Source of the DNA: Flavobacteriaceae bacterium
Lineage (GTDB): Bacteria > Bacteroidota > Bacteroidia > Flavobacteriales > Flavobacteriaceae
DNA length: 64,000 nt
Direction: 5' to 3'
Assembly: GCA_965659555.1 (NCBI GenBank)
Contig: CBFHVY010000002.1
Location: forward strand, 12,287 to 76,286
Shown here: piece by piece, positions 516-18,074 of the stretch
How the letters are laid out: every line of letters begins with the position of its first letter
Numbering within the stretch: position 1 is the stretch's first letter
The notes under the pieces: generated by a model
The model's database searches: none
What the model saw: only the letters and a program-made list of their open reading frames with translations
What the model was told of the DNA's origin: nothing
Translations under genes and position numbers: made by a program

Positions 516-1415
516 TTATGCGTTAGTTTTTAGGTGTTGTAATGCCTTGTGAAGCGCTGGGTACAGGTATGTAAAATCGGTTTTTTCTAGCTTCGTTGAC
601 GACACTCTGCTTCCCTTTAACAAGATACAAGCCATTTCTCCAAAGACTAATTTTAAGAGGAATGATGGAACTCCTAAAGGTAAAAAAGGGCGTTTGAATA
701 TTTTTGCCAGTGCTTTAGCAAAAGAGTAGTTGGTATAATGCTCGCCTGCAACCGCATTATAAGGACCAGAAAAGTCTTGCTCTTCGATACTCTTACAATA
801 GAGTGTACAAAGATCATCTATATGAATCCATGGCATGTATTGTTTTCCATTGCCTAAAGGACTTATAACAGGTGTTTTCATTTTTGCAAGTGCACCCCCT
901 TGAGCACTCAGAACAATTCCTGTACGCAATACTACCGTTCGTATTCCTAAGCTATTAAACTGTGCGCTTGCTTCTTCCCATTGTTTACAAACCATACCCA
1001 AGAAATCACTAGCAGGCGCATCATTTTCTTCGAAGATAGTTTCGCTAGTTAGGCTTCCATAGTAGCCTGTTGCCGAAGCAGCCACAAAAGCTTTAAGAGG
1101 GATGTCGAGTTTTTGTACGGTATCAAACAGCAGTTGTGTGGAGTTTACTCTACTCTCTAAAATCACTTGCTTACGTTGCTTTGACCACCGTTGATCTGCA
1201 ATACCTGCACCTGCGAGGTGTACAATCGCATCGATGTTTACAAAAGCCTCCTCGTCTATAGTTCCTTTAGCTATATCCCAACCATAGGTGGGATAGGGTC
1301 CTTTATTAGAAGAACGTCTACTCAATAAGGCAACTTCGTATCCTTTAGAAACCAACATTTCACAAAGACGAGCACCTACAAGACCAGTACCCCCAGAAAC
1401 TAATATTCTTTTCAT
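516..1415 (-). CDS. TIGR01777-family NAD(P)-dependent epimerase/oxidoreductase
   Basis: SGGTGLVG Rossmann motif, HLAGAGIA, MPWIHIDD, GPYNAVA, C-terminal DUF1731-like segment. Confidence 0.9.
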   Translation of the reverse strand: MKRILVSGGTGLVGARLCEMLVSKGYEVALLSRRSSNKGPYPTYGWDIAKGTIDEEAFVNIDAIVHLAGAGIADQRWSKQRKQVILESRVNSTQLLFDTVQKLDIPLKAFVAASATGYYGSLTSETIFEENDAPASDFLGMVCKQWEEASAQFNSLGIRTVVLRTGIVLSAQGGALAKMKTPVISPLGNGKQYMPWIHIDDLCTLYCKSIEEQDFSGPYNAVAGEHYTNYSFAKALAKIFKRPFLPLGVPSFLLKLVFGEMACILLKGSRVSSTKLEKTDFTYLYPALHKALQHLKTNA

Positions 1416-1470
1416 TAGTTAAAAATAGGCAATCTTTTTTACAAAGAAGTGGGTACATATTCAAAAAAAG

Positions 1471-1881
1471 TTATAAAAATAAAGCACAGATAATCAAGGT
1501 ATTAGCATAAAAATATAAAAAAAATGACATTTTTTTTACTCCTACTAAAACCGACCCTCCAGTTTTCTCGTAAGTAAGGGTGTATTGAGCATCAAGTTTT
1601 TTGCCAGCCATGTTAAAGTTTTTAGAACGAGTTTTGTCAATAGCCGTATTTCTAGCAATATTGAGAATCCAGGTAAAAAAACGCCCTTTTTCAGGAGCAT
1701 AACTTTCTGCATTATTCCATGCCTTTACAAAAACATCTTGAGCAAGTTCTTCGGCAATGTCATGACTTCGAACAATATTATAGACTATACCCAAAACATT
1801 TTCATGGTACATCTCATATATTTTCTCGAAGGCCTTTACGTCTTTGGCTCTAAAATTTAGTACTAGTTCTTCTTGATTCAT
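1471..1881 (-). pseudogene. ECF sigma factor truncated after region 2 (no region 4)
   Basis: Good sigma-2 (AEELAQDVFVKAW...FFTWILNIARNTAIDKTRS). After ~aa 100 it reads into AT-rich non-sigma sequence and stops at 136 aa. Confidence 0.7.
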
Positions 1882-1927
1882 GGGGGGTTATAGAGTTATA
1901 AAAATACTTAAAAAAATAGGGATACCA

Positions 1928-1959
1928 TAAAAAAAGCCGGAATCAAAGATTCCGGCTTT
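1928..1959 (-). terminator. Rho-independent terminator of the metalloprotease gene
   Basis: AAAGCCGGAATC-AAA-GATTCCGGCTTT hairpin with an A-run to its left (U-tract on the - strand). Confidence 0.8.
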
Positions 1960-1981
1960 GCGTATAATTCAAAGGATTTTC

Positions 1982-4585
1982 TTATTTAATTTCCTCCATC
2001 GCATTGGTAATTAACGTTTTGATATGGTTTTTGTGTGCTTTTGTAGACACATTTCCAGTACCATTACTTACCCAAGTTTTGATGTTTTTTAAATTGTAAA
2101 TCGCCATAGATTTAGCTGCGATAGAAAAACGTCTACTGCTGTTCCCTGTCACCATTCCAATTAATCTAGTGGTATATACCGCTTGTAAATTCTGACGGAA
2201 AGAATTGATGTTTCCATATACATCTGGCTTAAACATAGCATTGTTAAGGTCAGTCATAAAAGAAGCTAAACTATATTCGTTTCCATACAATTCAGAATCA
2301 GCAATACGTTGTAAGGTATTAGGATGCATAATATGCGCTAAAACTCTATTTTGATACCCTAAGATTCTATCGTGAATTTTTGGATCTTCTGGTCCACCAA
2401 AGAAATTATATCCTCTACGTTGTGGCGCTAAGTAATTATATAATTCTTTAGGAGCAGCAAATGCATCAGGAGCAAATACATACTTCTTTAATGCATCCAT
2501 GGCTCTTTTCTGATCTTTTAAACTTACAGGCGTATAGGGTTTTGTTCCCCCTTTTTGACCAGCCATAGCTCTATCTACATATACTCCACCAATAAAACGA
2601 GAGATTACATCACCAGCTCTAGCCGACTGTCCATTTAAAATAGCATAGGCTTGATTTAGTTGCATATACGTTTCTCCTTTTTTAGTAAAACGATCTTGAA
2701 TATCTTTCATCATAGTGTTTACCAATTCAAAACGATTGATTGAATAGGTAATCTGATCATTAGATAAATCTCCAGTCATTACACGTGGGTCAATAGCTTT
2801 TCCTGGGCTACGCATATCATCGGCATCGTTACCAAAAATGTGTTCTGGCTTAGTAGACTCATTCAATAAAGCAGTCATTTCTGCTTCATTTTTAAAGTCC
2901 TGGTATCCAAATTTGATTGCCCAGATATCGTAAGGACCAACAGCCATATCATAGTATTGTCCTTGTTTAGTTCTGTCGTTAGTTAGGTTGATACCCGCAT
3001 AATCCATTACAGAACCAGTTAAGGCTTTTCCTTTAATAAAATCGGCATCAGCTAATTGCTCAGGCGAGAATAATTGACTCGCTTTCATGTTGTGGTTTAA
3101 TCCTAAAGTATGCCCTACTTCGTGCATAATTAAAGATTTCATTCCTTCTTTTTTCATGCCTTCCATTTCTAAGTCAGACGCACCCGTAGCCGCTAAAACA
3201 ATTTTACCAAACATATTGTTTTCGTGCATCATGTGTCCTTTAGAACAGTATAAGAATTCTTTATTTTGAAGCATTTTAAGCTTTTGCTCTTCGTCAGATT
3301 CTAAACCGTAGTTTGCTGCGGTTGTAAATACTCTGTCGTAATACACTCTGTTAGTAAAGTGTACATATTCTAACATAATGTCTGCTCCTAAAATTTCACC
3401 TGTTCTAGGGTTAACAAAACTAGGTCCGTATCCTCCAAAAGGTGGGTTAGGCGAAGAAGTCCAACGCAATACATTGTAGCGTACATCACCAGCATCCCAA
3501 TCAGCATCATCTGGTTGCACTTTTACTACCATGGCATTTTTAAAACCAGCGGCTTCAAAGGCTTCGTTCCATGCTAATACTCCTTCTTTAATGGTTTCTC
3601 TAAATTCCATTGGTGTAGAGTTTTCTATCCACCAAGTAATTGGTGTTACAGGCTCAGAAACAGCAGCGTTAGGATCTTTTTTAACCAATCTCCAACGGTG
3701 AATCATATCTCTATAGTTCACAACAGCGGTAGAGGTCATGTCATTGGTTTGTGTTAAGAAATACCCTACACGAGGATCGTCCATTCTAGGCGAATATCCA
3801 TCCGCAGGCATATTCATAAAGGTGTGGAATAATTGAATACTTACATTACGACCATCGGTAATTGCTTGAGAACCTCCATTTAAAACACCAGGATTATTAA
3901 ACACATATTCTGTTTTGATGTTGGTGTTTTCTGGATAGTTTTTAATTTCATTAATTCGAGATCTCGTATTATCTAATCTACCTAACGTAAATGAGAAAGG
4001 AGATTGCCCTGGGAATCTTGGGTTTTTAATTCTAGTTAAGGTTTCCGATAAAAATAATTTGGTCGCATCAATTAAATACTCTCCAGTTTTATCGTCTTCA
4101 AATAATAATTTTGCGCTTGCAATAGTAGCATTACTAATGTTGGCATCAGAAGATCTAGAAATAGCATTGTTACTATCGAAGTAAAACGAAGTATTTGGCG
4201 CCATAAAGTCGATTCTGTTAAAGTACTTCTGAATATGAAAAACAGAAGACCCTCTATAAGACCCTCTGAAAGCATTTGCATCGGTAACTCCATTGGCTAC
4301 TTGAGCAAAGTAAATAAAGTCTTTGTCGAGTTGTTCTTTTTTTACCAACATCTTTACAGCACCTGTAACAGTGTCTTGAAAAATGGTAAATAAACCGTCT
4401 ATTTTTTTGCTTCCTTTGGTAAGGCTAGCAACAGATTTTTTTGGTTTCGGTTTTGGTTTTGGAGCAACCACTTCAGTTTGCCCTTTCTTCTTGCGCTTTT
4501 TACGTTGAGCATCCATATCTTGAACGCCTACAACAGCACATACCAAAAATAGGGACAATAAAAATTTAATTTTTTTTGAATACAT
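1982..4585 (-). CDS. Zinc-dependent metalloprotease (DUF5117/DUF4953, EcxA-like), secreted
   Basis: Signal peptide, DPRVGYF, HEVGHTLGLNHN zincin motif, SVMDY Met-turn. Confidence 0.9.
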   Translation of the reverse strand: MYSKKIKFLLSLFLVCAVVGVQDMDAQRKKRKKKGQTEVVAPKPKPKPKKSVASLTKGSKKIDGLFTIFQDTVTGAVKMLVKKEQLDKDFIYFAQVANGVTDANAFRGSYRGSSVFHIQKYFNRIDFMAPNTSFYFDSNNAISRSSDANISNATIASAKLLFEDDKTGEYLIDATKLFLSETLTRIKNPRFPGQSPFSFTLGRLDNTRSRINEIKNYPENTNIKTEYVFNNPGVLNGGSQAITDGRNVSIQLFHTFMNMPADGYSPRMDDPRVGYFLTQTNDMTSTAVVNYRDMIHRWRLVKKDPNAAVSEPVTPITWWIENSTPMEFRETIKEGVLAWNEAFEAAGFKNAMVVKVQPDDADWDAGDVRYNVLRWTSSPNPPFGGYGPSFVNPRTGEILGADIMLEYVHFTNRVYYDRVFTTAANYGLESDEEQKLKMLQNKEFLYCSKGHMMHENNMFGKIVLAATGASDLEMEGMKKEGMKSLIMHEVGHTLGLNHNMKASQLFSPEQLADADFIKGKALTGSVMDYAGINLTNDRTKQGQYYDMAVGPYDIWAIKFGYQDFKNEAEMTALLNESTKPEHIFGNDADDMRSPGKAIDPRVMTGDLSNDQITYSINRFELVNTMMKDIQDRFTKKGETYMQLNQAYAILNGQSARAGDVISRFIGGVYVDRAMAGQKGGTKPYTPVSLKDQKRAMDALKKYVFAPDAFAAPKELYNYLAPQRRGYNFFGGPEDPKIHDRILGYQNRVLAHIMHPNTLQRIADSELYGNEYSLASFMTDLNNAMFKPDVYGNINSFRQNLQAVYTTRLIGMVTGNSSRRFSIAAKSMAIYNLKNIKTWVSNGTGNVSTKAHKNHIKTLITNAMEEIK

Positions 4586-4790
4586 GTTTTCGTGTTTAAT
4601 AGTTAATTAAGAATTGTATGTTTGATAATTTGGCTTCTAAAAATAGCTAATTATTGTTAAACAATGTTTTAGAACTGCCAAAACATTAACGATTTAACAT
4701 TTTTATCACATTTTATTTGTGTTTTCCTTAGCACTAGCATAAAAATTTTTTGCTCAAAAAGCCGTATTTTTATACCGCTAAAAAAGATAC

Positions 4791-5906
4791 ATGAAAAGAA
4801 GCGGATTTATTTTTACGAAATACGAAGCCCCAGATCAATCTCCCTTCGAAAAATTATTTGAAATATTTAAGGAACTCATCACTTATACCTCTGGTGATTT
4901 TGATGAGGCTATCGATTGGTTAAGGCAATTAGACAAGGAGTATAGCTTAACAACCGATGAGTATACCATCGACGATTTTATTGAAGACCTCAAAGCGAAA
5001 GGATATATTAAAGAAGAAATAGAGCCCGATGGTGCTGGGGGAGGTATGGCCATTACTGCAAAAACAGAACGCGCTATTCGTCAACAAGCATTGCAACATA
5101 TTTTTGGAAAAATAAAACGAAGCGGTTCTGGAAACCATAAAAGTAAAAGCCCCGGAGTAGGCGATGAGCATACAGGAGACTTTAGGGCATATCAATTTGG
5201 AGATGCGCTAGACAAAGTATCAGTCACGGAGAGTTTAAAAAATGCGCAAATCAATCACGGTATAGGAAACTTTAACTTAACGGAAGAAGATTTAGTGGTT
5301 GAAGAAACAATGCACAAAGCTCAAATGAGTACCGTGTTAATGATTGATATTAGTCATAGTATGATTTTGTATGGAGAAGATAGAATTACCCCTGCAAAAA
5401 AAGTAGCCATGGCTTTAGCCGAGTTGATTACAACACGTTACCCTAAAGACACTCTTGATATTTTGGTGTTTGGAAATGATGCTTGGCCAATCTCAATTCA
5501 AGAGTTACCCTATTTAAAAGTAGGCCCCTATCATACCAATACTGTAGCAGGACTCCAATTGGCTATGGATATGTTGCGTAGAAAACGGAATACGAATAAA
5601 CAAATTTTTATGATTACCGATGGGAAACCAAGTTGCTTGAGAATGCCCGACGGACAGTATTATAAAAATAGTAATGGACTAGATTCCTTTATTACAAATA
5701 GATGCTATGCCATGGCTCAACAGGCAAGAAAATTGCATATTCCCATAACCACATTTATGATTGCACAAGACCCCTATCTTATGCAGTTTGTAAGTGCATT
5801 TACAAAAGCCAATCAAGGGAAAGCTTTTTATACAGGATTGAAAGGGTTAGGGGAAATGATTTTTGAAGATTATGAAACAAATAGAAAAAAGAGAATACGA
5901 GGATAA
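4791..5906 (+). CDS. von Willebrand factor A domain protein
   Basis: MIDAS elements DISHS, HTNT and ITDG. Confidence 0.85.
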   Translation: MKRSGFIFTKYEAPDQSPFEKLFEIFKELITYTSGDFDEAIDWLRQLDKEYSLTTDEYTIDDFIEDLKAKGYIKEEIEPDGAGGGMAITAKTERAIRQQALQHIFGKIKRSGSGNHKSKSPGVGDEHTGDFRAYQFGDALDKVSVTESLKNAQINHGIGNFNLTEEDLVVEETMHKAQMSTVLMIDISHSMILYGEDRITPAKKVAMALAELITTRYPKDTLDILVFGNDAWPISIQELPYLKVGPYHTNTVAGLQLAMDMLRRKRNTNKQIFMITDGKPSCLRMPDGQYYKNSNGLDSFITNRCYAMAQQARKLHIPITTFMIAQDPYLMQFVSAFTKANQGKAFYTGLKGLGEMIFEDYETNRKKRIRG

Positions 5907-12293: not shown

Positions 12294-14177
12294 TTATTTA
12301 ATTAACTCGTAACTGCGTTTAATAAAGTTGGTTAACTCTTCGCCATGCAATAGGTTTTGAGATAATTTCGCTAAATCGAAAGCTTGCTTAATTAAACGTT
12401 GTTGTTTCTTCTCTGTTTTGGTGTTTAGTATTTCTGACACTAACTCGTGGTTGGTATTTACTACCAGGTTATACATTTCTGGTAAGTTACCCATGCCCAT
12501 CATACCGCCACCGGTAGCGCTCATTTCCTTCATTCTTCTCATAAATTCAGGAACGGTAATCATAAATGGAGAAGCATTAGAATCCATAGCCTCTAACTGA
12601 ACGGTATATGTTTCTTTTGGAATGCTATTTTCTAAAATAGGTTTCAGTTTGTCTTTTTCCTCATCGCTCAATTTACTCAATACTGTATCCTCTTTTTTGA
12701 TTAATACATCAATAGGATCTGCATCTACGCGAGCAAATTTTACCTTCTCATTCGACGTTTCTAGTTTTTGCATTAAGTGCGATACAATTGGAGAGTCTAA
12801 TAATAAGACTTCATACCCTTTTTCTTTTGCATCTTGAATATAGCTATGTTGCGCATCTTTGTTTGCTGCATATAAGATAATGTGGTTACCCTCTTTATCT
12901 GTTTGTGCCGCTTTGGTTTTTTCGAGTAACTCGTCAAAGGTAAAGTAGCTATTATCTACCGTTGGGTATAAGGCAAACTTTTTAGCTTTATCGAAGAATT
13001 TGTCTTCAGATAGCATTCCGTATTCAATAATGACTTTTATATCGTTCCACTTTGCTTCAAAGTCTTCTCGGTTGTTTTTAAATAAAGAGCTGAGTTTATC
13101 GGCTACTTTTTTGGTAATATATCCCGAGATTTTCTTTACTGCACCATCGGCTTGTAGGTAACTTCTCGATACGTTTAAAGGAATGTCTGGACTATCAATC
13201 ACCCCTTTTAACATCTGTAAAAAGTCGGGTACTATACCTTCTACATTATCGGTAACAAACACTTGGTTTTGATACAATTGGATTTTATCTTTCTGCATGT
13301 CTAAGTTCTGACTCAACTTAGGGAAGTATAAAATACCGGTAAGGTTAAAAGGATAGTCTACATTGAGGTGAATGTGAAATAAAGACTCTTCAAATTGCAT
13401 TGGGTACAATTCTCTGTAGAAGTTTTTATAGTCTTCCTCTTCTAGATCTGCAGGTTTTTTTGTCCAAGCAGGATCTGTATTGTTGATGATATTATCTACC
13501 GTTATTTTTTCTGGCTTAGCGTCTTTATCTGCTCCTTCTGGTAATGGAAGGGTTTCTTCTTTGGTACCAAATTTAATAGGCACTTGGTTAAAACGATTGT
13601 ATTTGGTAAGCAGTTCTCTAATCTTACTGTCTTCTAAAAACTCGGTAGAGTCTTCTGCAATATGAAGCACTATTTCTGTTCCGCGGTCTGATTTGTCGTG
13701 TGCTTCTAAGGTATATTCTGGCGATCCGTCGCAAGTCCAATGTGCTGCTGGCTCATCTTTGTAAGACTTGGTAATAATTTCTACTTTTTCTGCAACCATA
13801 AAAGCAGAGTAGAATCCTAATCCAAAATGACCAATAACTCCGGTGTCATTTTTATCGTCTTTGTATTTTTCTAAAAATTCTTCGGCACCAGAAAAAGCAA
13901 TTTGGTTGATGTATTTTTCAACCTCTTCGGCGGTCATTCCAAGTCCTTGATCTTTAATGGTGAGTGTTTTCTTTTTCTTGTCGATGCTCACTTCAATCTT
14001 GGTGTCGCCAAGTTCTACTTGAGCTTCTCCAATAGAAATGAGGTGTTTTAATTTGGTGGTGGCGTCTGTACCGTTCGAAATTAATTCTCTTAAAAATATC
14101 TCGTGGTCAGAATATAAAAACTTCTTGATTAATGGAAAGATATTTTCTACCGATACATTAATGTTTCCTGTACTCAT
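12294..14177 (-). CDS. htpG: Hsp90 chaperone HtpG
   Basis: EIFLRELISN, KDQGLGMT, IGHFGLGFYSAF, IPLNVSRSYLQ. Confidence 0.97.
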   Translation of the reverse strand: MSTGNINVSVENIFPLIKKFLYSDHEIFLRELISNGTDATTKLKHLISIGEAQVELGDTKIEVSIDKKKKTLTIKDQGLGMTAEEVEKYINQIAFSGAEEFLEKYKDDKNDTGVIGHFGLGFYSAFMVAEKVEIITKSYKDEPAAHWTCDGSPEYTLEAHDKSDRGTEIVLHIAEDSTEFLEDSKIRELLTKYNRFNQVPIKFGTKEETLPLPEGADKDAKPEKITVDNIINNTDPAWTKKPADLEEEDYKNFYRELYPMQFEESLFHIHLNVDYPFNLTGILYFPKLSQNLDMQKDKIQLYQNQVFVTDNVEGIVPDFLQMLKGVIDSPDIPLNVSRSYLQADGAVKKISGYITKKVADKLSSLFKNNREDFEAKWNDIKVIIEYGMLSEDKFFDKAKKFALYPTVDNSYFTFDELLEKTKAAQTDKEGNHIILYAANKDAQHSYIQDAKEKGYEVLLLDSPIVSHLMQKLETSNEKVKFARVDADPIDVLIKKEDTVLSKLSDEEKDKLKPILENSIPKETYTVQLEAMDSNASPFMITVPEFMRRMKEMSATGGGMMGMGNLPEMYNLVVNTNHELVSEILNTKTEKKQQRLIKQAFDLAKLSQNLLHGEELTNFIKRSYELIK

Positions 14178-14388
14178 AGTTCGTGTGTTTAGTTTTAGTA
14201 TGCTTCCTCTATGTCAAAAAAAATACCAAAAGCAATCTTGTGACAAGATGACAGCACACTATCGTGGTGTTTAGTTTGTGGGGTGCTTTTGGAGTGGAAG
14301 ATTGTAGTTTGTGAAAAAATACGGTAGTATTGGGGTGTTAAGGGGATGTGCATCATACACATTGTTGTGTCTATTGCTTTTAGGTTTT

Positions 14389-16683
14389 GTTGGGCACAGT
14401 TATTCTATTCTTTTTCATTTTCCAGAACTATAAGATCAGCCCTTTCCTTTAGGACCTCTTTACAATAAGATCCAATATTAGTCCCTTTGATTTTAACACT
14501 GTCACCATTCTCTCTTTTGTAACAATCATCATCCATACTAGCTAATCTCGAGTTTTCAAGGGCGCTATCACTTAGAGCTTTTACATCAATTATAGCAATG
14601 GTTTTGCCATTATGTGTGACTTTTCTAATTTTTGGGATTGGATTCAATCCGTCAGTACAACTTGAAATTTTTTGAGACATACTTTGTTTTAAAGTGTCCC
14701 AGTCTTTTTTAATTTTTAGATCTGTAAAATCTATTCCTTTAACCTCCCATGTACCATCTTCAATTCCAATAACTATCCTTCCACCTAAATAATTTGAGAA
14801 TGCTGTTACAGTTTTTATTATTCCCTTGATCGCTTCATCTTTATTTTGATGTAATTCTCCTTGTGCTTTTAGTCTTTTAGTATCTGTAAAGAAAGCTTCT
14901 TTAATTTCTAAGTCGATATGTTCAGAATCTATCTTTAATTTGTCTAAAATTTCAAGTATTTCTGGGTCAGCCATATCCTTCATTAATGCCTCACAGAATT
15001 TAGGTTTTGAAACTCTAATTAGCTTAAGAAAGTCTTTAAAAAGTTGTTGTTTTCCTCCTTCACCGATACGCTTCCAGTTTTTAATTTCCTCTTTGGATCT
15101 CAATTTGTTCACTGAATCAATAATAGGAATCAAATATGTCTCAAATTCATTTTTGACAGTAATATAGTCGTCAATTCTTATTGACTCTAACAGGTCATTT
15201 TTATGAAGCTCCTTTAATACTTCTGTAAACACTTTTAAGAGAGCACCAAATCCTTGATTGGATCTAAGTAGGTTAAGTGTTTTGTCTCTACGATTCCAAT
15301 GTTCTGTACCTCTTTCTTGAATAACTTGAAACCATAGAGAGATTAGTGAAAAAGCGACACTATCTTTTTTATTTGGAATTCTTAAGAGAGACATAGTTGC
15401 TTCGATATCCTCGATAACTTTTTCACTTTTAATAGCAGTGCATACTGACTCTAAAGTTAGTTTTGGCTCCTTTTTAGAATATGCTGCGCTATCATATTTT
15501 ATAATGCCAAACAAAGAACTTTCTTCATTTTCATTTAACGATTTAACCAATGTCGATATTCGATACTTTATATCATCAACTTCTAATATTGTTGGGTAAA
15601 GATCCCACAATAGACTCGGGCTTACTTTGGTTTGCTTTTCATTAATATCAATGAAAGTTTTTATTTGGTCTTCCAAATTCATTTTGTCGAACGCCACCAC
15701 ATAAATGAGGTCCTTAGTAGACTGATCAAGACCATCATATGCAAAAAGTCTATGTTGACCATCTATTACATTAACAGATTGATATTGTTTAGGTAAGGTA
15801 AGTGTTCCGTGTTGTATATCATTAATTGCTTTACCGGCAGGTTTAAAATTATGTTTATCAGATTCTAATGAAATAATGATATTCGTTGGAAAGATTCCGC
15901 GTTCATCACGAATAAACTTCTTAATAGCATTGACTTTAGTTTTTTTAATTAATCGCTGATAATTATGATTTAAATCGTCTTCGAAATCTAATTTCCTATG
16001 GGGAACTGTTGAAAGAGGAATAAGCGTGGAAGGATGTACCCCAAATAAATATGCGTATGATTTACTGCCATATTTGGTTCTTATTGCTGGTATTGTAAGA
16101 TCTTCAGAAGTCATAGATCTAATTTGTTGGCCTTTACACAAATAAGACACTAACTGGAAATAGGCCAATCTTGAGTATTGACTTTTGAGTTCAATAAAAT
16201 ACTCTATGATTGCTGGGTTCAAATAGACAATACCTTTTCTATTTAGTTTTTCTCTATCAGTGTCTGAGATAGATCTATTATTACAGTACACGAAAACGAC
16301 ATTTTTTTTCTCTGTTTCGGGATTACCTGATTCATATTTTCTAATGTCATCTACTTCAGAGGACCATTGTTTAATCTTTAGAGAGTCATTTTGCTGAGTT
16401 GTACATTCAATATAAATTCTTGACTCATTTGATTCAGCTATTACGTCTATTTTTTTTGATGATAATTCAGATTCCTTTTTTCCATATTTAACTTCGCACT
16501 CTCTTCCGATATTAAGTTTTTCAAAACCTAATTTGTAAAACAATAACCAAGCTTCATTTTCTAAAGCCTCATCATTTTGAACCTCTTCACTTTCTCTTTT
16601 CTTTGCTTCTGTTTTGAGTAATGACTTCGAATCATTAAAGTTGTCTGAAATTATTATCATATGTTTTTTTTATTGTGCCCAAC
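14389..16683 (-). mobile_element. Solitary integron-like gene cassette carrying the DGQHR-Schlafen gene
   Basis: On the - strand GTTGGGCACA (16683-16674; GTTRRRY core) lies 13 nt before the ATG, and TGTGCCCAAC (14398-14389; RYYYAAC inverse core) lies 6 nt after the stop. The two are perfect reverse complements. No integrase in the window. Confidence 0.55.
14405..16660 (-). CDS. Three-domain protein: PD-(D/E)xK-like N-terminus, DGQHR (DndB-like) domain, C-terminal Schlafen/AlbA_2 domain; candidate defence protein
   Basis: KKIDVIAE...IYIECTT; FPTNIIIS...VNVIDGQHRLFAY...TFIDINEKQTKV; SEHIDLEIKE...KTVTAFSNYLGGRIVIGIED...CYKRENGDSV. Confidence 0.85.
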   Translation of the reverse strand: MIIISDNFNDSKSLLKTEAKKRESEEVQNDEALENEAWLLFYKLGFEKLNIGRECEVKYGKKESELSSKKIDVIAESNESRIYIECTTQQNDSLKIKQWSSEVDDIRKYESGNPETEKKNVVFVYCNNRSISDTDREKLNRKGIVYLNPAIIEYFIELKSQYSRLAYFQLVSYLCKGQQIRSMTSEDLTIPAIRTKYGSKSYAYLFGVHPSTLIPLSTVPHRKLDFEDDLNHNYQRLIKKTKVNAIKKFIRDERGIFPTNIIISLESDKHNFKPAGKAINDIQHGTLTLPKQYQSVNVIDGQHRLFAYDGLDQSTKDLIYVVAFDKMNLEDQIKTFIDINEKQTKVSPSLLWDLYPTILEVDDIKYRISTLVKSLNENEESSLFGIIKYDSAAYSKKEPKLTLESVCTAIKSEKVIEDIEATMSLLRIPNKKDSVAFSLISLWFQVIQERGTEHWNRRDKTLNLLRSNQGFGALLKVFTEVLKELHKNDLLESIRIDDYITVKNEFETYLIPIIDSVNKLRSKEEIKNWKRIGEGGKQQLFKDFLKLIRVSKPKFCEALMKDMADPEILEILDKLKIDSEHIDLEIKEAFFTDTKRLKAQGELHQNKDEAIKGIIKTVTAFSNYLGGRIVIGIEDGTWEVKGIDFTDLKIKKDWDTLKQSMSQKISSCTDGLNPIPKIRKVTHNGKTIAIIDVKALSDSALENSRLASMDDDCYKRENGDSVKIKGTNIGSYCKEVLKERADLIVLENEKE

Positions 16684-17019
16684 TATGTGCTAAGTGTATA
16701 TGGCATTTACTCATTTCTATCCTTAAGGATAGGAAGCCCCTTAAAATCCTCATCATACGCCTCTAAAAGCGATCGAGTGCTTGTTTATGATTTGCAAGAG
16801 ATGTTCAGTTTTTAAAACTATTAAAAAATAGTTAGACTTACCTCATTTGTATTGGTGAAATTTTAAACCCACCAAAACTAGTTAAACGCAAAAGCTATAT
16901 TAAAGCGTCATACAAAAACCACAGGAGTTGCGAATAACAACACAAAATGAGATTACGCTTGTTATAGGTGCTGTACCGCTGAATGTTGGCATCACCCTTT
17001 TGAGTTGATTTTTTATTGG

Positions 17020-17027
17020 TATTTTTG
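17020..17027 (+). promoter_or_regulatory. Bacteroidota sigma-A -7 element for fabH
   Basis: TATTTTTG matches TAnnTTTG, with TTTG at 16999-17002 upstream. Confidence 0.45.
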
Positions 17028-17066
17028 TTACCTTGTACAACAAACAAACAAATTCAACGGATAAAT

Positions 17067-18074
17067 ATGTATACTTCTAAAATAACAGGATTAGGTTATT
17101 TTGTGCCCGACAATGTGGTGACCAATGACGACCTAAAGCAGTGGATGGAAACGAGTGATGAATGGATTCAAGAACGTACGGGTATTCAAGAGCGAAGATG
17201 GATAGACCCTGCTACTGGAGAAACCACGTCTACCATGGCGGTTAAAGCGTCTAAAATAGCCATAGAAAGAGCCGGGCTCACCAAAGATGATATCGATTTT
17301 ATTGTCTTTGCTACCCTAAGTCCCGATATGTATTTTCCTGGTGGAGGGGTTCGCGTACAAGATATGTTAGACATGCCTACTGTGGGAGCGCTCGATGTTC
17401 GAAATCAATGTTCTGGGTTTATTTATGCCTTGTCTGTTGCCGATCAGTTTATCAAAACCGGGATGTATAAAAATATTTTAGTAATTGGTTCCGAAAACCA
17501 CTCAGGTGGTTTAGAACGTTCTACGCGTGGTAGAAATGTTACCGTTATTTTTGGTGATGGGGCAGGAGCTGCGGTATTATCGAGATCGGAAACCCCTGGA
17601 AGAGGTATCTTATCGTCTCATCTGCATTCTGAAGGAAAACACGCTAAAGAATTGGCCCTTGAAGGACCTTCTACCGGACGTTGGGTTCCAGAAATTTTGG
17701 AGGCTAATGACCCCGAAGATATTTCATACTATCCGTATATGAATGGTCAGTTTGTGTTTAAACATGCTGTGGTTCGTTTTTCCGAAGCAATTATTGAAGG
17801 ATTGCAAGCCAATAACCTTCAAAAAGAAGATATCGATATGTTGATACCGCATCAAGCGAATTTGCGTATCGCACAATTTATTCAAAAGAAATTTCAACTC
17901 TCCGACGATCAGGTGTACAATAATATTATGAAGTATGGTAATACTACAGCTGCTTCTGTTATTATTGCCCTTACCGAGGCTTGGGAGTTGGGTAAAATTA
18001 AAGATAACGACCTGGTGGTATTGGCCGCTTTTGGTAGTGGATTTACCTGGGGTAGTGTGGTCATTCGCTGGTAA
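17067..18074 (+). CDS. fabH: 3-oxoacyl-ACP synthase III
   Basis: NQCSGF (catalytic Cys), FGDGAGA, PHQAN, YGNTTAAS. ATG at 17067 preferred over track start 17016. Confidence 0.93.
   Translation: MYTSKITGLGYFVPDNVVTNDDLKQWMETSDEWIQERTGIQERRWIDPATGETTSTMAVKASKIAIERAGLTKDDIDFIVFATLSPDMYFPGGGVRVQDMLDMPTVGALDVRNQCSGFIYALSVADQFIKTGMYKNILVIGSENHSGGLERSTRGRNVTVIFGDGAGAAVLSRSETPGRGILSSHLHSEGKHAKELALEGPSTGRWVPEILEANDPEDISYYPYMNGQFVFKHAVVRFSEAIIEGLQANNLQKEDIDMLIPHQANLRIAQFIQKKFQLSDDQVYNNIMKYGNTTAASVIIALTEAWELGKIKDNDLVVLAAFGSGFTWGSVVIRW

Follow-up and report, generated by a model that had tools for sequence, protein, structure and literature searches.

The closest described relative of the system considered here, as likened by architecture and published description, is rAID-1 (short for recombinase-associated acquired interbacterial defense) of gut Bacteroidales, in which a 5′ XerD-family tyrosine recombinase gene is followed by co-directional short accessory genes (10.1101/471110, Ross et al. 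2019; 10.1101/2025.05.03.651265). By the criterion for rAID-1, the recombinase shares 44% identity or more with B. fragilis BF9343_RS08045, and the clusters carry type VI secretion system (T6SS) immunity genes (10.1101/471110); the intergenic repeats have been termed “reminiscent of integrons,” with no mechanism known as yet (10.1101/471110; 10.1101/2025.05.03.651265). As for integrons themselves, an IntI-specific additional domain is taken as defining their integrases (10.1101/2022.02.06.479319), and sedentary chromosomal integrons carry defense cassettes (bioRxiv 10.1101/2024.07.02.601686). Here we describe a DGQHR-Schlafen gene, bracketed by an inverted repeat, in a stretch of 64,000 nt (the window; contig CBFHVY010000002.1, positions 12,287 to 76,286) of a Flavobacteriaceae metagenome-assembled genome (MAG; GCA_965659555.1, here G000; 2.19 Mb, 36% G+C, 94.7% complete, 2,192 open reading frames [ORFs]). 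With a probability of roughly 0.75, the repeat is the split recombination core of a mobile cassette of an integron-like, Xer-type system of Flavobacteriaceae, and the copy in the window is a solitary, stranded one.

The unit bounded by the repeat has the following features (window coordinates).

16683-16674, minus strand: 5′ core (R′ remnant) GTTGGGCACA, 13 nt ahead of the ATG, with AAT and an A-run in between.
14405..16660, minus strand: the cassette ORF, 751 aa, with DGQHR (DndB/DpdB-like) and Schlafen AlbA_2 domains.
14389..14400, minus strand: R″ box ACTGTGCCCAAC, reverse complement of the 5′ core.

The minus-strand layout is ...gccatatacacttagcacata GTTGGGCACA AT aaaaaaaacat ATG ... gaa TAG aataac TGTGCCCAAC aaaacc..., and the two ends read, in gene orientation, ...cacataGTTGGGCACAATaaaaaaaacatATG (5′) and ...gaaTAGaataacTGTGCCCAACaaaacc (3′). 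The 3′ 10-mer TGTGCCCAAC (14398-14389, minus strand) lies 6 nt past the ORF stop. An earlier note on this DNA had described the two 10-mers as exact reverse complements bracketing the ORF, which a rereading of sequence and coordinates confirmed (10 of 10 nt); their cores, GTTGGGC and GCCCAAC, match GTTRRRY and RYYYAAC, and we infer a crossover between G16683 and T16682 (marked by the slash in G/TT). Two other motifs of the note were also traced: ACCTATAAC lies where the note had put it (16969-16961), and CATATACAC is present, with its position corrected by 3 nt to 16702-16694 from 16699-16691.

Taken alone, without comparison, the inverted repeat is suggestive only, because the exact 10-mer occurs eight times in the 2.19-Mb genome and about 3% of the ORFs (67 of 2,192, genome-wide) carry an inverted repeat of 9 nt, in almost every case A/T-rich, with one half at each end. 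A genomic repeat family is ruled out, since the other six copies lie in unrelated coding contexts and do not share flanks. Chance is excluded by the comparison across lineages of the gene, in which the two halves covary and similarity breaks at G/TTGGGC.

Close homologs of the cassette protein were found in many metagenome contigs. In four lineages of the gene, the two halves of the repeat change together and their complementarity is kept.

Window and L051: 5′ core GTTGGGCACA, R″ TGTGCCCAAC, exact complement.
P0002: 5′ core GTTGGCAATA, R″ TATTGCCAAC, exact complement.
L052: 5′ core GTTGGCCACA, R″ TGTGGCCAAC, exact complement.
P0003: 5′ core GTTGACCACA, R″ TGTGGCCAAC, one mismatch.

Identity between the L051 copy and the window is 98.57% over 16683-14371. 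The L051 flanks are unrelated; the similarity begins abruptly at the G of GTTGGGC and stops after ..AAGCAATAG. The proposal that the core is split at G/TT is thus upheld by both the covariation and this breakpoint. The repeat pair has decayed in L126 (80% lineage) and is missing in homologs at 76% identity or less (L045, L053, L054, L127, and L128); therefore, the repeat belongs to the mobile cassette form and not to the gene family. The P0003 form occurs in at least three upstream and at least three downstream contexts, one directly after the tmRNA gene and others after degenerate copies of the tmRNA 3′ end. With one cassette known from four or more sequence lineages and from no fewer than six contexts, this gene family amounts to a natural experiment that fixes the crossover point and displays compensatory evolution of the core.

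In L051 and L052, a 63-nt imperfect palindrome lies 3′ of the gene, and the next gene follows directly. This site is laid out as R″(..CCAAC) AAAACC TATAAGCAATAGCGCCC tgc GGGACGCnACTGCTCATAGCC AGACC G/TT, and the next cassettes keep the same rule with a core and R″ of their own (GTTATAGC with GCTATAAC; GTTAGCAA with TTGCTAAC). For L051 and L052, the junction of a circle was reconstituted by joining the site to the 5′ core of its cassette; the bottom strand then folds at −21.9 and −22.1 kcal/mol (z of −7.8 and −7.0). The fold consists of an R-box stem of 10 to 11 bp, a spacer that is asymmetric and unpaired, and an L-box stem in which one base is extrahelical. The top strand folds more weakly (−18.2 and −17.2 kcal/mol) because two positions that pair as G·T on the bottom strand are A·C mismatches on the top. 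Scanning metagenomes for the left arm gave 49 sites, about 42 of them structurally complete; in 29 of these sites, 98.9% of cells are paired, compared with 25 to 48% when the partners are slid, and three pairs have changed on both sides, within a variation that is limited because the search pattern fixed one arm. The TAAAAG variant that the window has in L″ turns up again in L102, together with a compensating CTTTTAG partner.

The same kind of site occurs in arrays. The right-arm motif CATAGCYARACCGTT is clustered in many genomes of the family, and the consensus of the array sites (five arrays plus contig C143 of the source MAG) is ..AAC AAnnCCTATAA ... CATAGCCnAACC G/TT. Among the 49 cassettes of the five arrays, 36 have the complement of their own 5′ core no more than 260 nt ahead of the next G/TT, a relation found in 54 of 677 cases when the cores of other cassettes were used as a control. 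An R″ identical to that at 14389-14400 is also used by another cassette in the G326 array. The sites are 58 to 203 nt long, with common classes near 63, 129, and 190 nt, and are located 3′ of the ORF. Thus, the attC-like family specific to Flavobacteriaceae that the earlier note had envisaged exists, with arrays in this MAG (C143 and C165) and in many genomes of the family, while the sites of about 300 nt that it placed upstream of the gene do not match those measured.

In all eight array genomes, the best match to the integron integrase profile TIGR02249 adjoins the array; where orientation was checked (G096 and G326), the recombinase gene is upstream of the cassettes and co-directional with them. 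The junctions after the recombinase gene read ctatataaacaaG/TT (G096), cgatataacaaG/TT (G326), and ctatattcacttG/TT (G209), and those of L051 and P0003 are alike. The array recombinase is XerA-like and 380 to 400 aa long, with an N-terminal extension of about 110 aa, and the two that were compared are 35% identical to each other. Against TIGR02249, array recombinases score 210 and 181 bits (cut-off, 265 bits) in two pieces that skip profile positions 181-242, and no match over the cut-off was found in the source MAG or the eight array genomes. The best family is XerA/“integron integrase” NF040815, with a score just below its cut-off; the closest solved structure in the PDB is archaeal XerA; and, in an alignment to VchIntIA (2A3V), 14 residues stand in place of the 58-residue additional domain of IntI. 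By these profile and structure comparisons, the recombinase of the cassettes is predicted to be XerA-like and not IntI. Because it lacks the IntI-defining domain, the system is integron-like but not a classical integron, and the integron integrase that had been suggested as mobilizer has to be replaced by a XerA-like recombinase.

The source genome has arrays of its own. The whole of contig C143 is an array of eight small ORFs (56 to 133 aa) separated by such sites, and on C165 (~890-1990, minus strand) sites of 190 and 135 nt flank a HigB/HigA-like cassette, the contig ending at a tRNA-Ser gene. A tBLASTn search of the MAG with two array recombinases returned only two ordinary Xer genes (C66 and C15) and, at C83:9632-9795, a relic of the last ~45 codons of the array recombinase (..LGHSKPETTMIYTHV..; ..LGHSKPETTMIYTHVSRSALEAVSNPLD..); about 130 nt after the relic lies GCCATATAACgaGTTATATGC, the core used throughout C143 (C83:9930-9960). 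This part of C83 has the appearance of a decayed head of the genome's own platform, and the cognate recombinase is, within the limits of a 94.7%-complete MAG, dead. A further solitary site-like sequence is present at C35:15219-15400, with a left half of 17.8 bits and a degenerate right half, ..catgctaaaacacGTTGGCAAAC.

In the mechanism that we propose, R″ (..TGTGCCCAAC) and R′ (GTTGGGCACA..) of the circular form would pair at the base of a folded single-stranded hairpin consisting of an R box, an unpaired spacer, an L box with an extrahelical base, and a loop. The tyrosine recombinase, as the presumed catalyst, would cut at G/TT, and the inserted linear cassette therefore begins with TTGGGCACA and ends with R″-L″-loop-L′-G, a layout that the compared sequences show. 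The window copy lies outside any array, in the slot between htpG and fabH, with its 5′ junction intact at G/TT; with its site ending after L″ at 14371, the hairpin cannot form and the copy is probably stranded. The earlier note's description of the unit as an orphan cassette without a recombinase nearby is supported. The remains of the site, the leader, and the tail comprise the following features.

14371..14388, minus strand: AAAACC, the unpaired spacer of the 63-nt class, followed by its L″ arm TAAAAGCAATAG; homology to the intact copies reaches no further.
14266..14370, minus strand: degenerate tail in place of the L′/R′ arm; the right half is undetectable.
14370-14348, minus strand: second, weak left-half-like stretch, ACACAAC AATGTGTATGATGCAC, in the tail.
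16684..17015, minus strand: leader of ~330 nt from the fabH promoter to the cassette, its origin not traced to any sequence compared.
16703-16692, minus strand: CCATATACACTT, in the leader, attI-junction-like, 8 nt too far from G/TT.
16732-16717, minus strand: perfect 16-bp palindrome CTATCCTTAAGGATAG, in the leader.
16880-16873, minus strand: TAGTTTTG, in the leader.

With half-site profiles built without any sequence of the window, the top match of the left-half hidden Markov model (HMM) in the window is at 14400-14372 (12 bits; E value, 0.012), and the right-half HMM has no match anywhere in the window. A covariance model of the 63-nt class gives 14 bits (E value, 0.13) at 14356-14398, compared with 29 to 34 bits for the diverged C143 sites. 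The homology to L051 and L052 ends at 14371. As judged by these comparisons, the window site is cut off after L″, and 14370-14266 is unrelated apart from the weak left-half-like stretch. Because only R″, spacer, and L″ (14400-14371) are left, the reconstituted junction has no attC-like fold, and no L-box stem was seen in the fold of the window site. The earlier prediction that the circular junction folds like an attC site thus fails for the incomplete window copy but holds for L051 and L052 (−22 kcal/mol; z of about −7). The window copy is probably stuck. A 9-nt complement at 14236-14228 (ATTGCTTTT) was tried as a candidate for the L′/R′ arm and judged coincidental, as it lies mostly in a native htpG element. 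At one metagenome site, in L083 (~1644, minus strand), an internal deletion fuses ..GCAATAG to ACACGTT; window positions 14371-14367 have the same GCAATAG/ACAC junction, followed by AAC instead of GTT. The hairpin of the site may be deleted recurrently.

Neither the half-site HMMs nor the covariance model found an attC half-site in the leader. The upstream hybrid site postulated by the earlier note (about 280 nt, from ACCTATAAC) accordingly finds no support, and an upstream attC site built by hand from ACCTATAAC (16969-16961) to GTTTAAC (16887) was rejected because neither kind of model scores it. The window carries ccatatacactt and then 8 extra nt before G/TT, unlike the junctions after the recombinase gene, and this leader motif is suggestive only as an attI-type junction. 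An ORF or pseudogene remnant was sought in the leader, and none was found. Homologs of the leader and the tail are absent among 60 relatives and in the arrays examined, and both are unlike the genes that fill the slot in relatives (tBLASTn) and the leaders of other contexts of the DGQHR gene. Rfam returned nothing, and a scan for sigma-70 promoters and terminators was uninformative. The leader also contains a hairpin, AACTATTttttAATAGTT, at 16816-16833. The segment 16668-16689 resembles the N-terminal codons of fabH at 17096-17117 (TTGTGCCCRAC.ATGTG; 82% over 22 nt), a similarity treated as chance; fabH itself carries a near-R″ sequence, GTGCCCGAC.

The neighbors of the cassette ORF are htpG (12294-14177, minus strand) and fabH (17067-18074, plus strand), and the slot between them is bounded by two native flanks.

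14213..14265: native left flank, the htpG-upstream element GTCAAAAAAAATACCAAA...TGTGACAAGATGACAG, present in all relatives whatever fills the slot.
17018..17066, plus strand: native right flank, the conserved fabH promoter/leader (TATTTTTGTTACC...AACAAACAAACAAATT...ATG).

None of the 36 other species examined in the genus has the DGQHR-Schlafen gene. In 13 species the slot is empty, with an htpG-fabH distance of 169 to 288 nt, and in 8 species it holds 1.3 to 3.3 kb of unrelated genes, mostly in the orientation of htpG (loci L118-L125): a major facilitator superfamily (MFS) transporter, a GFO-type oxidoreductase with a twin-arginine translocation (TAT) signal, two lipoproteins, a 382-aa protein, and an unannotated, seemingly peptidase-like protein of 812 aa with a transposase fragment. 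No attC half-sites were found among the slot genes of these 8 species, and the slot (window 14178-17066) is therefore a general hotspot of gene content. The sequence common to relatives stops at ~14265 and resumes at ~17018, which leaves a variable segment of ~2.75 kb (~14266-17015). The alignment across relatives proposed in the earlier note did reveal the empty slot, with breakpoints away from the GTT core; the idea that the cassette alone was inserted in an otherwise empty site is not supported, since the variable segment exceeds the repeat-bounded unit. Relatives at the species level share too little noncoding similarity to map breakpoints, and a search for the empty site by exact-protein lookup of fabH and by a metagenome scan with a 28-mer of the fabH promoter gave nothing. 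Across relatives, the htpG-upstream element can be written GTCAAAAAAAATACCAAA(N7-8)TGTGACAAGATGACA; it may be a heat-shock promoter or operator.

Several points weigh against the interpretation of the window copy as a stranded cassette of a Xer-type system. (i) Relative to other species, the breaks fall 125 nt (~14265) and 330 nt (~17015) beyond the repeat, and because they are known only from comparison with other species, the unit that entered the locus is not defined. (ii) On the upstream side, the junction neither scores as an attC right half nor matches attI cleanly. (iii) One context of P0003, L044, diverges 6 nt before G/TT and not at G/TT; homologous exchange may explain this, in our reading of the sequences, because sites of the 129-nt class are nearly identical between cassettes. 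(iv) The activity of the recombinase on these sites is presumed. (v) At a completeness of 94.7%, the assembly could lack a recombinase that is intact in the genome, and contigs C83, C143, and C165 could be misbinned.

There are two plausible routes by which the cassette reached the slot, and we consider them about equally likely. In the first, it would have been inserted by a recombinase at an attI-like or secondary G/TT site, and the 3′ site would have decayed afterwards; cassettes inserted at secondary genomic (attG) sites were reportedly described by Loot et al. in 2024. In the second, which may quite possibly be correct, a fragment of ~2.75 kb that comprised leader, cassette, and site remnant would have been imported through homologous recombination in the flanking core genes or through illegitimate recombination, and the repeat would be a fossil of an earlier life in an array. 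Import accounts for a variable segment larger than the repeat-bounded unit, for a truncated 3′ site, and for a 5′ flank that is not recognizable as a target; it also agrees with the unrelated genes without attC half-sites in the slot of 8 other species and with the movement of the same gene within tmRNA- and tRNA-linked islands elsewhere. However, the 5′ junction is exactly at G/TT and is joined to neither an attC right half nor a clear attI site, as a secondary-site event predicts, and leader and tail have no homolog in any array or relative examined.

A wider version of the reading as an integron-like cassette can be offered only tentatively and is rather doubtful: a second integron-type lineage, XerA-like and without the IntI domain, would exist in Flavobacteriaceae; its cassettes would escape from arrays, settle at intergenic attI-like motifs (TATAnAC ... 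G/TT), and seed defense genes across the core genome while their sites decay, and the window would be an example caught in this process.

It is very unlikely that the unit is a classical integron cassette moved by a true IntI encoded elsewhere, through attC × secondary-site (attG) insertion as in proteobacterial integrons. The core does fit GTTRRRY and RYYYAAC, the layout is integron-like, and integrons have been reported in Bacteroidota (PMC8618304; 10.1101/2022.02.28.482270); however, a complete integron in Bacteroidetes is reported only for Salinibacter (IntegronFinder 2.0, 10.1101/2022.02.28.482270), and the searched genomes have no match at the TIGR02249 cut-off (210 and 181 bits against 265), with 14 residues for the 58 of IntI and XerA as the best PDB match.

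There is very little chance that the repeat acts in RNA, with pairing between the 5′ and 3′ untranslated regions for stability or translational control driving the covariation. Such pairing would be in keeping with the compensatory changes that preserve complementarity and with the position of both halves inside the likely transcript, but dozens of unrelated array cassettes beside a recombinase obey the same rule, homology between contexts breaks exactly at G/TT, R″ is part of a local hairpin site, which pairs with any core that comes next in an array, and Rfam has no match. That the repeats are terminal inverted repeats of a nonautonomous transposon (a cargo element like a miniature inverted-repeat transposable element [MITE]), or mere chance, has next to no probability: a perfect 10-bp inverted repeat does bracket a single gene without a recombinase inside, and ~3% of ORFs have some such 9-nt repeat, but there is no target-site duplication (flanks ..cacata/ and /aaaacc), homology goes on beyond the 3′ repeat, for 27 nt in the window and across a whole 63-nt site elsewhere, the repeat varies by lineage with its complement tracking it, and the genome has no repeat family of this 10-mer; copies with identical termini and target-site duplications were not found.

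The cassette ORF scores 53.4 bits with Pfam DndB PF14072 (gathering score, 29.1) and 48.5 bits with Pfam SLFN_AlbA_2 (gathering score, 25.3), matches DpdB of PADLOC with 82 bits, and has a weak Hjc/PD-(D/E)xK-like hint at its N terminus (E value, 0.11). No dnd or dpd partner genes adjoin it among its neighbors in the window; its homologs adjoin McrBC, reverse transcriptase, and Schlafen-helicase genes. The product is thus a putative single-gene antiphage defense protein. Its expression probably starts from the 330-nt leader, and it has probably been retained as a stand-alone defense gene. A putative antiphage gene of 2.3 kb travels as a cassette, and such cassettes are also found outside arrays, where standard integron finders would not search.

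The contexts of the gene elsewhere yielded further observations. The surroundings of P0003 include McrBC, reverse transcriptase, and Schlafen-helicase genes. In L041 (447-839) and in L038-L044, the P0003 leader, cassette, site, and a decayed next cassette (~2.8 kb) come directly after ssrA or its remnants, which suggests tandem islands at ssrA with McrBC, reverse transcriptase, and other defense genes; the degenerate copies of the tmRNA 3′ end in L038-L044 read aaatcctcc..agttcgac..ggctccac. The L051 cassette comes after tRNA-Gly, two att-like tandem repeats, and tRNA-Leu. The repeats (L051:47-320; two of 100 nt after tRNA-Gly, each ending in a copy of the tRNA 3′ end, tcccgtctcccgctca) resemble stacked att remnants left by integrative elements and lie upstream of the cassette array. 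The 68% homolog in L054, which lacks the repeat, adjoins a Bacteroidota-type integrase. In L034, an IS110-family transposase gene (4621-5592; DEDD_Tnp_IS110/Transposase_20) begins 44 nt past the stop of the P0002 cassette, just after R″ and at the position expected for the recombination site; the other half of the P0002 site was not found beyond the insertion sequence (IS) in L034. IS1111-attC elements target the attC sites of integrons, a parallel for the L034 transposase. Finally, a 2.6-kb contig filed under a Tissierellia MAG (L033; SKID01000135.1) holds a 79% homolog of the cassette and a GC-rich attC-like hairpin; it may be a misbinned contig or a cross-phylum occurrence.

Compared with known systems, the flavobacterial cassettes resemble those of classical integrons in their GTTRRRY and RYYYAAC cores, in the G/TT crossover, and in a 5′ core complementary to the R″ of the same cassette. 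Like attC, their sites are imperfect palindromes that have R and L boxes, leave a spacer unpaired and a base extrahelical, and fold more stably as the bottom strand; the cassettes are mostly promoterless and single-gene, with defense genes among the cargo. Unlike in integrons, the recombinase lacks the IntI-specific domain, has an extra N-terminal domain, and is encoded in the same direction as the cassettes. The workings of an integron, with folded single-strand sites, G/TT crossover, and cassette circles, are considered to depend on that extra domain of IntI; if our reading is true, the same site grammar, in a widespread cassette system with a plain Xer-like recombinase, would be older, or more easily evolved, than believed. 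With the clusters of attC sites lacking integron integrases (CALIN) and the single attC sites of IntegronFinder (10.1101/2022.02.28.482270), the window copy shares a cassette far from an integrase and a chromosomal, non-array position, whereas it holds half a site and its system is not IntI based. Like rAID-1, the flavobacterial arrays have a 5′ recombinase, at least two co-directional genes, and conserved intergenic repeats; at the window locus itself no recombinase is present, and the copy is outside any array. Unlike rAID-1, they reside in marine Flavobacteriaceae-like genomes, have sites of 58 to 203 nt, and include in their cargo the 2.3-kb putative antiphage gene and toxin-antitoxin pairs. 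If the proposed reading is true, it provides a concrete, testable mechanism for the poorly understood rAID arrays of gut Bacteroides.

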